This document shows, piece after piece, positions 12,427 to 16,424 of a stretch of 64,000 nucleotides of DNA. Source of the DNA: Dictyostelium discoideum (lineage: Eukaryota); contig CM000151.3 in assembly GCA_000004695.1 (NCBI GenBank), positions 3,648,001 to 3,712,000 on the forward strand. Reading direction: 5' to 3'. Position numbers and translations under genes: made by a program. Under the pieces are notes generated by a model. The model was not told the DNA's origin. It worked only from the letters and a program-made list of their open reading frames with translations, and did not search any database. Each line of letters begins with the position of its first letter. Position 1 is the first letter of the stretch.

Positions 12427-14818
12427 ATGGAGGATTATATTATATTAAGTAAATGTGGGCAGGGTACATATGGCAGTGTTTTTAAAGGAATACATAAGAT
12501 TACTCATTCGTTAGTTGCTTTAAAAAGGGTAACGGATATTGCTCAAGAAGATGGCGTAAGTTTTATATATATAACCTATATATATATTTATTTATTTATT
12601 AAAATATATTTATTAATTTTTTTCATTAACAAAAAAAATAAAATAAATATATATATAGGAACCAGTAGAGGTTAAATATCTAAATCAATTAAAAAATCTA
12701 TCAAATATAGTTAATTTAAGAGATCACTTTTATATAGATAAAAATAGTGTTTTAGTTTTGATTATGGAATTTATAGAGGGTGACCTTTGGAAGATTATGT
12801 CAAACCCTCAATGCACTTTATCACTTGGTCAAATTAAAAACTTTACAAAACAATTATTGGAAGGTGTAAAACAATGCCATGTTAATGGTATAATGCATAG
12901 AGATATCAAACGTATGTTGTGAAATCTTTTTTTTTTTTTGTTAATTTTATTGTTATTATTTTAGTATATATTAACATTTTCATTTTTACTATTTATCAAT
13001 TATTGTTATTATTATTATTATTATTATTATTATTATTATTATTATTATTATTATTATTATTATTATTATTATTATTATTATTATTATTATTATTATTATT
13101 ATTATTATTATTATTATTATTATTATTATTATTATTATTATTATTATTATTTTTTAGCTGCAAATTTATTGATAACCACAAATGGTGTTTTAAAATTAAC
13201 AGATTTTGGATTATCAACATCATATTCAAAAAGAAGTGAAAAATTTTTATCAAGTAATGTTGTTTCATTATATTATAGACCACCAGAATTATTATTGGGG
13301 TCATGTATATATGGTCCAGAGATTGATATGTGGTCAGTTGGTTGTATATTAATGGAGATGATCAATAATTCTTATTTGTTTGCAGGTGCTGATGAAACTG
13401 CTCAATTAGATTTAATTTTTAAGTTATTTGGTTGTCCAACTGAAAAATCTTGGCCTGGTGTCTCATCATTACCAGGTTATAACGATTTATTTAATAAACA
13501 ACAACAACAACAACAAAATGAAAATAATTATAGCAAACAACATAATAACAATAACAATAATAATAATAATAATAATAATAATAATAATAATAATAATAAT
13601 AATAATAATAATAATAATAATAATAATAATAATAAATATAATAATATATCAACTTCATGTTTACAATCACCATCTTCTTCACCACCAATTGGTGGCTATG
13701 CTTCATCATTATCATCAGATTTTAATAGTAATGAATATAATGGTTATAATCAAACCTTTTCAAATGAAGATTGCTTGGCAATCTCTCAAAAAAAATTAAT
13801 AGATAAATTTCCACATCTTGTTTTATTGCCAAGCGTTTTGGATTTGGCATCCAAAATGTTGACATTAGATCCAAAGAAGAGAATAAATAGTTTAGAAGCA
13901 CTCGAGCACCCTTGGTTTAAATCATCTAATGATATGGATCAAATAGTACCTTTCTCAAAAGATTTTACCGATTTAGCAAATCGTTATATTGCTAGTACTC
14001 GACAATTACAACAACAACAACACCATCATCAACAACAACAACAACAACAACAACAACAACAACAACAACAACAACCTCATCAACAACAATTAATTCAAAG
14101 ACAACACCAAGAACAACAGCAACAACAATTAATTCAAAGACAACAAGAGCAATCAAAGCAACAATTAATTCAACACCATCAACAATCGGTTAACCAACAA
14201 CAATTGGCTCAACAACAACAATTGGCACAACATCAACAATATAACTCACAACAACACCAACAACACCACCAACAACAACACCAACAACACCAACAACACC
14301 AACAACAACAACAACAACAACAACAACAACAACAACAACAACAACAACAACAACAACAACAACAACAACAACAACAACAACAACAACAACAATATCATCA
14401 ACATCAGCAACAATATCATCAATATCAACAACAATACCATCAACCATCACAACAACAACAACAACAACAACAACAACAACAACAACAACAACAACAACAA
14501 CAACAACAACAACAACAACAACAACAACAACAACAACAACAACAACAACAACAACAACAACAACAACAACAACAACACCAATACCAACCCCCACAACAAT
14601 ACAACCATCAACCCCCACAACACCAACACCAACACCAACACCAACACCAACACCAACACCAACACCAACACCAACCACAACCACAACACCAACACCAACC
14701 ACAACCACAACCACAACCAACACCAACACCAACACCAACATCAACACCAACAACAACAACAATACCACCAACCATCACAACAACAATACAACCAACCATA
14801 TCAAAATCAAATGGATAA
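12427..14818 (+). CDS. Cyclin-dependent kinase, CDK9/CDK12/CRK7-like transcriptional CDK, about 680 aa. Three exons: 12427..12555, 12659..12911, 13158..14818. A roughly 110-aa polyQ/polyN insert sits inside the kinase domain, and a roughly 280-aa polyQ/His/Pro/Thr tail follows.
   Basis: GQGTYGSVFKG (Gly loop), VALKRV (VAIK), HRDIK|PANLL split across intron 2 (donor GTATGT, acceptor TTTTTTAG, phase 1), and DFGLS. SNVVSLYYRPPELLLGSCIYGPEIDMWSVGCILMEM and WPGVSSLPGY are typical of the CDK9/12 group. Intron 1 donor is GTAAGT. Confidence 0.8.
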
Positions 14819-16424
14819 CCACAATGTATATTTAAATAAACCACAAACACAGATTCAAACTCAACCTCCACACACACAATACCCCCAAAGCAATCAACAA
14901 CCTTCCAATCATGTGGAGTATTTAATACCATCACAACCACAATATGTTTATGTCGAACAAAATCAAAATTCATACTCAACACCAACAGATCATAATTTGT
15001 GTCATGCCATTAATTTGGACAGACAATTTGATCATATTAATAATAATAATAATAATAATAATAATAATAATAATAATAATAATAATAATAATAATAATAA
15101 TAATAATAATAATAATAATAATAATAATAATAAAAATAATAATAATAATTCTTATGACTACAGTTTTTCAGTGCACAGCAGTCAACAATACTCACGCCAT
15201 TATCCAAATTCTTGCAACAATGAACAAACAAAACCTAAAGATTACTATGATCATGCCTCTCGTTCACAACACGATTACCATGCTAATGGTAGTAATAATG
15301 GTAATAATAATAATAATAATAATAATAATAATAATAATAATAATAATAATAATAATAATAGTAATAATAACAATAATAATAATAATAATAATAATAATAA
15401 TAATTGTGATAGCAACTATAACAGCAATAATAATAATAGTAATAATATTAGTATTGCTAATATTAAATACCAACAAGACCAACACTACCAACATAGTGAT
15501 ACTTATACCTCTCATCAATACAATTCATTTAATGATAACAACAACAACAACAACAACAACAACAACAACAACAACAACAACAACAACATCAACAACGACA
15601 ACGACAACAATGGTTATAACCAATATGATGAATCTGAAGAAGATGAGGAGGAACAAGATGATTATGATGAGTTTGATATCCAAGATAGTGCAAGTAGTTA
15701 TAATGACAATTGCGGAGTTTTAAATTCAAACACCTACATTTATGATTATCAATCGCCACAACAACCTCTTTATTCAAATGAATATCAAAATAATAATCAT
15801 CAGCCCCAACAAACAGATAGTTATAATTATAATAATACTAATAACGATAATAATAGTTATAATATTAATAATAATAATAATAATAATAGTTATAATAATA
15901 ACAATAATTATAATAATAGTAATAACAATAATAATATTGGTAATATTGATAGTAATACTAATAATAATAATTATAATTATAACTATAGTAATAATGGTGA
16001 TGTTTATAATGGTTATAATAATAATAATAATAATAATAATAATAATAATAATAATAATAATAATAATAATAATAATAATAATAATAATAATAATAATAAT
16101 AATAATAATAATAATAATAATATGAATAATATGAATAATATGAATAATAATATTATTACTAGTAATCGTGAACAATTTTATAGTAACAACAATCATAACA
16201 ATATCAATCAATATCAATATCAATCACAACAACAACAAACCCAACAACAACAACAACAAACCCAACAACAACAACAACAAACCCAACAACAACAACAAAC
16301 CCAACAACAACAAACCCAACAACAACAACAATATCTTACTCAATATTATCAACAAGAATTATATTCACAATCCTACAAGTGCAGACCATACTATCAAAAC
16401 TCATTTGTTATTTCAAAATGTTAG
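14811..16424 (+). CDS. N/Q-rich low-complexity ORF of 537 codons. Its ATG overlaps the kinase stop codon by 8 nt in the +1 frame. It is either a separate prion-like low-complexity protein gene or a frameshifted continuation of the CDK tail.
   Basis: An uninterrupted 1.6 kb ORF with in-frame (AAT)n and (CAA)n runs, acidic DEEDEEEQDDYDEFD, and (QQQQQT)n. The composition is codon-like rather than intergenic-like. There is no AT-rich promoter gap between it and the upstream gene. Confidence 0.4.
   Translation: MDNHNVYLNKPQTQIQTQPPHTQYPQSNQQPSNHVEYLIPSQPQYVYVEQNQNSYSTPTDHNLCHAINLDRQFDHINNNNNNNNNNNNNNNNNNNNNNNNNNNNNNNKNNNNNSYDYSFSVHSSQQYSRHYPNSCNNEQTKPKDYYDHASRSQHDYHANGSNNGNNNNNNNNNNNNNNNNNNNSNNNNNNNNNNNNNNCDSNYNSNNNNSNNISIANIKYQQDQHYQHSDTYTSHQYNSFNDNNNNNNNNNNNNNNNNNINNDNDNNGYNQYDESEEDEEEQDDYDEFDIQDSASSYNDNCGVLNSNTYIYDYQSPQQPLYSNEYQNNNHQPQQTDSYNYNNTNNDNNSYNINNNNNNNSYNNNNNYNNSNNNNNIGNIDSNTNNNNYNYNYSNNGDVYNGYNNNNNNNNNNNNNNNNNNNNNNNNNNNNNNNNNNNMNNMNNMNNNIITSNREQFYSNNNHNNINQYQYQSQQQQTQQQQQQTQQQQQQTQQQQQTQQQQTQQQQQYLTQYYQQELYSQSYKCRPYYQNSFVISKC

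Follow-up and report, generated by a model that had tools for sequence, protein, structure and literature searches.

A CDK-family kinase gene of Dictyostelium discoideum probably interrupted by a small indel in a coding repeat

Some kinase gene models of Dictyostelium discoideum required corrected genomic DNA, and automated predictions had hidden frameshifts in others, either by adding introns or by truncating the open reading frame (ORF) (PMC1420674). SSR-encoded homopolymers are common in this genome, and one class of mutation documented in AX4 consists of small indels within coding repeats (PMC7466956). The locus that I describe here lies at 12427-16424 of the window (the whole 64,000-nt stretch of D. 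discoideum AX4 DNA that was analysed; features are on the + strand unless noted) and carries the same signature as the frameshift-masked kinase models (PMC1420674), namely a coding signal that carries on in another frame, but differs from them in that the lesion is situated in a low-complexity tail and the catalytic domain is intact. The original prediction asked whether a kinase gene running straight into an N/Q-rich ORF represented one kinase with a giant tail or two genes fused together; my answer is that 12427-16424 is most probably a single transcription unit, ancestrally one gene with an N/Q-rich tail, interrupted by a small indel in a repeat, and that the programmed frameshift also proposed is not upheld, for want of a motif, structure or homopolymer. 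Most likely, then, this is an ordinary gene-model problem of a kind already known, and not new biology.

As written, the kinase coding sequence consists of three exons (12427-12555, 12659-12911 and 13158-14818) encoding 680 aa, and its frame (mod 3 = 2) does stop, as predicted, at the TAA of 14816-14818. Exon 1 (MEDYIILSKCGQGTYGSVFKG...) provides 43 codons from the ATG at 12427 to a GTAAGT donor at 12556, where intron 1 begins (12556-12658; 103 nt, 93% AT, GTAAGT...AG); exon 2 continues up to HRDIK, and splicing produces a continuous Pkinase domain; intron 2 (12912-13157; 246 nt, 94% AT, GTATGT...AG) is mainly an (ATT)n microsatellite; and exon 3 contributes, in the kinase frame over 13158-14719, the remaining kinase domain and then a Q/H/P-rich tract (64% Q), with a codon score that prefers the kinase frame to ~14720. 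The domain is complete (Pfam PF00069, E 3.5e-60, profile positions 2-263 of 263) and the catalytic motifs VALK, HRDIKPAN and DFG are all found in the kinase sequence. An (AAT)26 array (13556-13633) encodes most of a polyN run measuring 30 residues (257-286), for which about 36 had been given, and this run is part of a ~90-residue D. discoideum-specific insertion in the kinase domain that is missing in all aligned orthologues (alignment columns 302-391).

In the portion of Table S2 of the kinome paper (PMC1420674) available to me, the N-terminus of DDB0230050 is that of the kinase product, and the spliced product of the window is identical to it over the ~400 residues compared; by this sequence match the gene is DDB0230050. 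It is classed CMGC/CDK/CDK-DD1, with DDB0217416 as its chromosome 2 duplicate (Goldberg et al. 2006, PMC1420674), and is listed as 'kd', a complete kinase domain predicted to be active (PMC1420674); the paper (PMC1420674) carries no flag of editing, correction or pseudogene status for it, nor any mention of a 1216-aa form. DDB0230050 sits within the chromosome 2 duplication. I take the gene pair to be, perhaps, the one named DDB_G0272797/DDB_G0274007, and a literature search returned no paper carrying these names. Another candidate name, DDB_G0292550, was dropped when the literature search gave only name propagation in unrelated species. The locus is not mentioned in the transcriptome re-annotation paper PMC5282741, and neither the 680-aa nor the 537-aa product found an exact match among 15 billion proteins in a collection that does not include the D. 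discoideum proteome, and in which a homology search with the kinase likewise gave no D. discoideum entry.

Downstream of the kinase, the ATG at 14811 (aaatcaaATGGATAAcc) opens, exactly as had been claimed, a 537-codon ORF (ORF2) in the +1 frame (mod 3 = 0) ending at the TAG of 16422-16424, and the coding continuation in this frame, which includes ORF2, extends over 14718-16424 and specifies a tail that is rich in N (38%) and Q (15%) and includes an acidic patch; PQTQIQTQPPHTQYPQSNQQPSNHVEYLIPSQPQYVYVEQNQNSYSTPTDHNLCHAINLDR is one of the predicted peptides of this frame. ORF2 is genuine coding sequence, well beyond chance: its own frame contains no stops as compared to 6 and 205 in the other two, none of 5000 shuffles stays open (P ~1e-14 over 390 non-array codons), and codon log-likelihood prefers frame 0 in nearly every scoring interval between 14780 and 16340. 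With N-runs trimmed, a homology search gave no match at E <= 0.01 among 8000 candidates, and no Pfam family was found in the ORF2-frame tail. The tail is like the Q/N-rich prion-like domains of D. discoideum in composition (64% Q in the first tract, 38% N and 15% Q in the second).

Now considering what lies between the two parts, the GC content is 0.33-0.47 across 14500-14900 versus 0.08-0.18 in the true flanks (12000-12400 and 16400-16900), the 564-nt tract at 14245-14808 is devoid of AT-rich promoter-like sequence because it holds just 1 G and 23 T, and the dinucleotide GT does not occur at all in 14190-14816, so the original prediction was right that there is no AT-rich spacer, promoter or usable intron here. 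The sole terminator-like flank of the whole unit is the AT-rich stretch at 16425-16560, with an AATAAA at 16498 and GC dropping to 0.15-0.20, beyond which a convergent ORF begins on the minus strand at 16882. It is because ORF2 is coding, is not set apart by any promoter-like spacer and extends the Q/H-rich reading of the kinase tail that I consider the two parts as one gene. On paper, an unrecognised intron could also bridge the kinase and ORF2 frames, since the sequence offers 456 GT...AG pairs whose length (L mod 3 = 1) would suit; however, the lack of GT in 14190-14816 confines every candidate donor to 14189 or before, and the 60 of the 456 candidates that were inspected are 1.1-3.2 kb long and 67-73% AT, as opposed to 103 and 246 nt and 93-94% AT for the real introns, and would remove clearly coding sequence. 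Typical D. discoideum introns measure 60-250 nt with <15% GC (PMC1420674), and the chance of an intron bridge is next to nil.

The original prediction implicitly put the junction at the stop codon, but the coding signal really quits the kinase frame at 14718/19, ~95 nt upstream of the stop and within a (CAACCA)n/(CAACAC)n microsatellite, making the ATG/TAA overlap at 14811-14818 incidental. In this microsatellite, 11/11 CAACAY units (14618-14690) and 6/6 CAACCA units (14672-14714) keep the hexamer register mod 6 = 2, after which five CAACAY units (14718-14742) follow in the shifted register mod 6 = 0; the break itself (14714-14723) is where the last CAACCA (14714-14719) and the first displaced CAACAC (14718-14723) share 2 nt, an overlap that would fit the absence of a single CA (or the presence of an extra base). 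Array frames also differ across the break: upstream of it, the four CAA arrays and the one AAT array all follow the kinase frame (frame 2); downstream, 11 of the 12 CAA/AAT arrays follow the ORF2 frame (5 CAA and 6 AAT, frame 0), the one other being read as AAC-Asn. In addition, a 24-nt block, TACCAYCAACCATCACAACAACAA, is present twice and reads YHQPSQQQ each time: the copy at 14435 lies in the kinase frame, the copy at 14763 in the ORF2 frame. The out-of-register segment (14720-14818) has two readings: in the kinase frame it gives 32 codons (TPTPTPTSTPTTTTIPPTITTTIQPTISKSNG) followed by TAA, with ...IQPTISK as the ending as written, and in the ORF2 frame it gives QHQHQHQHQHQQQQQYHQPSQQQYNQPYQNQ, which repeats the YHQPSQQQ block of 14435. 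All three frames had been described as open over 14000-14800, which must be narrowed to 14245-14815 (stops at 14091, 14130 and 14166 interrupt frame 0; those at 14191 and 14242 interrupt frame 1), and the first stops of both non-coding frames come 8 and 25 nt past the end of the C/A-only tract (14816 and 14833), as expected if frame 0 is real. Codon usage gives no switch point within 14720-14816, where ACA and CCA (Thr/Pro) score as highly as CAA, and in the interval starting at 14720 the kinase frame scores slightly higher than the ORF2 frame.

A second species also bears on the question. The T. lacteum orthologue (P0002, L002 6001-7947), which matches the kinase-domain query with 50% identity across 97% of its length, is a single intronless ORF of 648 aa and, like the window gene, has a long Q/N/P-rich C-terminal tail, here within one uninterrupted ORF; the gene upstream of it is syntenic with the window. 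The differences are that the T. lacteum tail is ~350 aa long compared to ~825 aa in D. discoideum and that its kinase domain does not have the 90-residue insertion. The downstream neighbour in T. lacteum is unrelated to ORF2 and no ORF2-like neighbour gene exists at the locus, the sole ORF2-like stretch being in frame within the kinase tail. Similarity between the tails is marginal for the opening non-repetitive block in the ORF2 frame (z 3.2, matched by 5/500 shuffles) and not significant for the whole tail in the shuffle test (z 1.1). A C-terminal resemblance between ORF2 and the T. lacteum tail was also considered and dropped (shuffle test z -0.2, not significant). The tail comparison rests on T. 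lacteum, as the 3979-nt D. purpureum contig stops inside the gene. Exact matches to the junction DNA numbered zero in metagenome and prokaryote genome contigs, and a protein-guided metagenome scan found relatives of <=54% identity only.

These observations bear directly on the possibility of two adjacent genes, a 680-aa kinase closing at the TAA of 14816 and a separate 537-aa N/Q-rich protein opening at the ATG of 14811, the latter expressed either from a promoter inside the CAA-rich kinase tract or by bicistronic termination-reinitiation at the overlapping ATGGATAA. Both ORFs are indeed complete as written, the homology of ORF2 to the kinase tails of other species is below significance, an AATAAA at 14835 follows the kinase stop by 17 nt, and the ATG at 14811, which overlaps the stop, has no other ATG before it in its frame. 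However, ATG 14811 comes first because the tract before it is without G and T, and an AATAAA occurs once per 466 nt in the other coding ORFs of the window, which makes the 14835 site uninformative. Moreover, the AT-rich spacer that separate genes would call for is absent from a junction with the base composition given above, the Q/H reading and the YHQPSQQQ block enter the ORF2 frame from 95 nt upstream of ATG 14811, and T. lacteum offers no ORF2-like neighbour gene. Eukaryotic ribosomes reinitiate with very low efficiency once they have translated an ORF as long as 680 codons. Two adjacent genes are accordingly unlikely.

Even less probable is programmed +1 recoding, whether ribosomal at the break or TAA or through transcriptional slippage, by which one mRNA would give isoforms of 680 aa and ~1215 aa. 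The shift needed is +1, the frame beyond it runs on unbroken for 1.6 kb, and +1 shifts at a stop codon have precedents in antizyme and Euplotes. With the antizyme, Ty1/Ty3 and Euplotes sites, though, this locus shares geometry only (a 0-frame stop and a long open +1 frame) and is without the shift motif, stimulatory structure and orthologue conservation of those systems: CTTAGGC, GCGAGTT, TCCTGA, CTTTGA and in-frame AAA-TAA are all absent at both the break (14718) and the stop (14816), there is no homopolymer of at least 6 bases in 14169-14816, and the RNA of 14700-14900 is unstructured (MFE -1.9 kcal/mol, z 0.15 vs shuffles). Also, ACA, which is the A-site codon at the break, is common in the window, the repeat registers suggest an indel at the DNA level, and the T. 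lacteum orthologue, being a single ORF, requires no shift. The claim of a programmed or slippage frameshift is left unsupported. It would likewise be surprising if the sequence were correct and a 680-aa kinase and a ~1215-aa kinase with a prion-like N-rich tail both arose from a single mRNA, through motif-less +1 recoding within or shortly past the C/A-only tract or through stop-start coupled translation of ORF2 at ATGGATAA; if true, either would represent a kind of recoding not yet reported from Amoebozoa and could tune the share of the kinase that carries an aggregation-prone tail.

Returning to a single gene broken by a small indel, the ancestral form would have encoded the CDK-DD1 kinase DDB0230050 with a low-complexity tail of ~256 aa that is Q/H/P-rich followed by ~568 aa that is N/Q-rich, and the lesion at 14718/19 in the imperfect (CAACCA)n/(CAACAC)n repeat would be equivalent to losing one CA (or gaining one base). 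The kinase frame would then read on through 32 codons out of register and meet its first TAA, at 14816, once the C/A-only tract is over, while the true frame would go on for 1.7 kb with the Met at 14811 as a fortuitous internal residue. Restoring the CA yields an ORF of 1216 aa with its only stop at the end and a predicted junction peptide of ...QPQPQPQHQHQH..., such that the fusion of more than 1200 aa that had been proposed would stand (at 1215 or 1216 aa) with the correction that one base has to be skipped or two added. I infer that the kinase and ORF2 are, or once were, translated as one protein. A Sanger-era error in the AX4 reference and a real indel that arose recently in the AX3/AX4 lineage are about equally probable as the source of the lesion; with a real indel, the strain would make the 680-aa kinase with its catalytic domain intact, and the N-rich tail would be a 3' region that is untranslated and has not yet decayed.

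There are also observations that count against a single gene. The P/T-rich ending of the kinase is a plausible native low-complexity C-terminus, and ORF2 is without a detectable homologue, its overall tail similarity to T. lacteum not being significant. Slippage in a hexamer repeat usually alters length by whole units, and a 2-nt loss is not the commonest event. Lastly, the kinome authors checked all kinase models and left DDB0230050 unflagged (PMC1420674).

If a CA is merely missing from the reference, the product of DDB0230050 would be almost twice the size of the 680-aa form, no N-rich gene model next to it would count as a gene in its own right, and knock-out, tagging and proteomics designs for DDB0230050 would be affected. 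If the indel is instead real in AX3/AX4, laboratory strains would hold a tail-less allele of a CDK-family kinase and provide a natural experiment on low-complexity tails; and, considering the chromosome 2 duplication, both copies of the gene may carry the lesion. Homology-based pseudogene screens would miss a lesion such as this one because it is located in a low-complexity tail, and the repeat-register test detects such frame breaks, otherwise invisible to these screens, in low-complexity coding DNA.

As for the kinase itself, the sequence places DDB0230050 as a eukaryotic protein kinase of the CDK family and CMGC group: CDKs or CDK-like kinases make up essentially all of its 60 best sequence matches in the PDB (CDK16, CDK5, CDK2, CDK1 and Pho85; E values of about 1e-57 to 1e-55). 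Among solved structures, CDK16, CDK5, CDK2 and Pho85 come closest and are roughly tied. The YRPPELLLG motif is common to CDK9/12 yet not exclusive to them. No CDK9, CDK12 or CDK13 chain is among those best 60 PDB matches, and in the kinome tree k230050 clusters with k229294 and k229424 (CDK-DD1), separate from Cdk9 (PMC1420674), so that the earlier 'CDK9/12-like' label is without support; CDK9 is counted among the metazoan-specific subfamilies missing from Dictyostelium (PMC1420674). The helix C position reads EPVEVKYL, unlike PSTAIRE, PITALRE or PCTAIRE, and P[VI]E[VI]KYL is kept in 5/6 aligned sequences, with T. lacteum having SIEVKYL.

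This stretch has the usual make-up of Dictyostelium DNA: strongly AT-rich flanks, and coding sequence rich in (CAA)n and (AAT)n arrays. As written, it holds a kinase gene with three plus-strand exons (12427-12555, 12659-12911 and 13158-14818) and introns of 103 nt (GTAAGT...AG) and 246 nt (GTATGT...AG) that are 93-94% AT; in the spliced product of 680 aa, Pfam finds the Pkinase domain complete (E 3.5e-60). The original prediction closed this frame at TAA 14816-14818 and opened an N/Q-rich ORF of 537 codons (ORF2, plus strand, 14811-16424) in the +1 frame, from ATG 14811 to the stop at 16422-16424, and these coordinates are confirmed. 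As to whether this is a giant tail or a fused gene pair, the register break and the intact ORF2 described below speak for a giant tail reached through an indel and not for two genes: this is most probably one gene, with a small indel-type lesion at 14718/19 that splits its low-complexity tail. Intron 2 (12912-13157) is largely one long (ATT)n microsatellite (array about 12996-13150), the minus strand of which gives a spurious 102-aa polyN "ORF" (12996-13304), which naive ORF calling would report.

Table S2 of the paper on the Dictyostelium kinome (PMC1420674) lists a protein, DDB0230050, with exactly the N-terminus of the spliced product, so the window belongs to D. discoideum AX4. The paper's entries class the protein as CMGC/CDK/CDK-DD1 with a kinase domain rated active and give DDB0217416 as an identical second copy, located in the duplicated part of chromosome 2 of the sequenced strain AX3/AX4. 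Membership of the CDK family is supported, but the earlier label "CDK9/12-like" is not: the published tree groups DDB0230050 with DDB0229294 and DDB0229424, away from Cdk9, and counts CDK9 among the metazoan-specific subfamilies missing from Dictyostelium (PMC1420674). The closest solved structures among the best 60 PDB matches are CDK16, CDK5, CDK2 and Pho85, each at ~1e-57. The polyN insert noticed in the kinase domain is present, at 30 residues rather than about 36, within a ~90-residue D. discoideum-specific insertion in the orthologue alignment, between WPG..LPG and FP.L..LP..LDLASK, which is the CMGC-insert position of kinases. CDK-DD1 was described in 2006 as Dictyostelium-specific (PMC1420674); since Physarum has a clear orthologue (P0006, 47% identity across 93% of the query) and 5/6 aligned sequences share P[VI]E[VI]KYL in helix C, its range looks at least Amoebozoa-wide; the hits further include many similar environmental transcripts, about 390 aa long (within P0003-P0036).

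The Q/H-rich reading departs from the kinase frame ~95 nt upstream of the stop codon and not at the stop itself, the kinase-frame C-terminus being ...QHQHQPQPQPQP|TPTPTPTSTPTTTTIPPTITTTIQPTISKSNG* and the same DNA in the ORF2 frame giving QHQHQHQHQHQQQQQYHQPSQQQYNQPYQNQ-M-DNHNVY.... Throughout the hexamer run 14618-14714, CAACAY (11/11) and CAACCA (6/6) lie at coordinate mod 6 = 2, while the following five CAACAY units (14718-14742) lie at mod 6 = 0, and exactly 2 nt are shared by the last CAACCA (14714-14719) and the CAACAC that opens the displaced series (14718-14723), as the loss of one inter-unit CA would leave them. A 24-nt block, TACCAYCAACCATCACAACAACAA, occurs at both 14435 (kinase frame) and 14763 (ORF2 frame) and encodes YHQPSQQQ at each site; all CAA arrays and the AAT array upstream of the break are in the kinase frame, and 11 of the 12 downstream follow the ORF2 frame as CAA or AAT, while the remaining one reads as AAC-Asn. 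Restoring CA yields a single ORF of 1216 aa (dropping one base, 1215 aa), so the proposal that an indel would fuse both parts into more than 1200 aa holds, with the junction at 14718/19 instead of the stop. The exceptional array (15537-15587) forms (CAA)16 in the kinase-frame register; all others in ORF2 are (AAT)n-Asn or (CAA)n-Gln, and its (AAC)n-Asn reading is probably ordinary AAC-encoded polyN.

Of the 564 nt of the tract 14245-14808, one is G and 23 are T (GC skew -1.0), and none of the three forward frames, all of them open, can have a stop or a start there; the kinase frame (coordinate mod 3 = 2) is stop-free over 12965-14815, the third frame over 14245-14832 and the ORF2 frame (mod 3 = 0) from 14169 onward, so that all three are open over 14245-14815, a somewhat shorter range than the 14000-14800 first proposed. 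Once the tract ends, both wrong frames soon meet a stop, one within 8 nt (14816) and the other within 25 nt (14833), and the ATG/TAA overlap at 14811-14818 is thus a by-product, not a signal. The minus strand here gives further spurious long poly-Val/Leu/Gly "ORFs" (14190-14771, 14447-14716 and 14608-14985).

ORF2 is genuine coding sequence. Its own frame has 0 stops, where the other two have 6 and 205; it stays open in 0/5000 shuffles, and the 390 codons that lie in no pure array would be stop-free by chance with a probability of ~1e-14. With 13 further long ORFs of the window as training set, codon log-likelihood prefers the ORF2 frame in nearly all windows from 14780 to 16340, and arrays inside ORF2 follow its register (AAT 6/6, CAA five). 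Its composition is 38% N and 15% Q, and it matched no Pfam family and no homologue at E <= 0.01 in protein collections without the D. discoideum proteome, as expected of fast-evolving low-complexity sequence.

Two independent genes would be a very improbable arrangement: GC over the junction is 0.33-0.47 vs 0.08-0.18 in the true 5' and 3' flanks, the sole AT-rich 3' flank of the unit comes after ORF2 (with AATAAA at 16498), and the AATAAA at 14835 is uninformative, as the window's other coding ORFs have this hexamer once per 466 nt. Programmed or slippage frameshifting, which the original prediction also entertained, is more doubtful still, as no known +1 motif and no homopolymer of >= 6 bases was found and the RNA at 14700-14900 is unstructured (MFE -1.9 kcal/mol, z 0.15). 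Least credible of all is an intron joining the frames, since 14190-14816 has no GT dinucleotide; of 456 frame-correcting GT...AG pairs, the 60 inspected (1.1-3.2 kb, 67-73% AT) are unlike real introns (norms in PMC1420674). The claimed lack of an intergenic spacer and of an intron is therefore borne out.

The T. lacteum orthologue is a single ORF without introns (648 aa, of which ~350 aa form a Q/N/P-rich tail), and the loci are orthologous because its upstream neighbour (L002 1705-5064) matches the adaptin-like gene of the window (4959-8837) on the same strand; no window counterpart of its downstream neighbour was found. The only ORF2-like stretch in the 14-kb T. lacteum locus lies in frame within the kinase tail (E about 0.6), and the ORF2-frame block that is the first non-repetitive one scores above shuffles against that tail (z 3.2, 5/500 shuffles as good), which neither the tail as a whole (z 1.1) nor the C-terminal ends (z -0.2) do, a comparison weakly consistent with one gene. 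More distant orthologues, Physarum and environmental transcripts included, measure about 380-570 aa, so the long tails are lineage-specific expansions. The contig of the nearest species, D. purpureum (75% identity), ends within the gene, its 271-aa model (2978-3957 of GL871714.1) being cut by the edge of a 3979-nt contig; this end, like the lack of the HRDIKP segment in another dictyostelid model (P0021), is probably a gene-model artefact. In D. discoideum, the ~3.5 kb between the adaptin-like gene and the kinase (8840-12400) has few ORFs, no tRNA and a GC of 8-19% (profiled from 11500 on), and is unusually long as an intergenic region for this genome.

If one gene has been split, either the Sanger-era reference of 2005 is in error there or the indel is true and recent, and I regard the two as about equally likely. 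As to the first, the kinome authors had to rebuild some kinase models on corrected genomic DNA, and they report that automated prediction concealed frameshifts through ORF truncation (PMC1420674); as to the second, mutation accumulation in AX4 gave 4.9e-11 indels per site per generation, with repeats as hotspots and 46 or 49 of 74 indels coding (the paper's text and Table 1 disagree; PMC7466956). ORF2 is free of decay, so the lesion, if real, must be young: going by those rates, one would expect, as a rough estimate, that about 1e6-1e7 generations suffice for a neutral repeat-rich ORF of 1.6 kb to be disabled. What is seen here is a question of gene model or reference quality in a kinase already known and catalogued, and not new biology; it is of value to annotators and to those working on DDB0230050, and since the reference has a second, reportedly identical copy, DDB0217416 (PMC1420674), the frame break would concern two copies if it is common to both.
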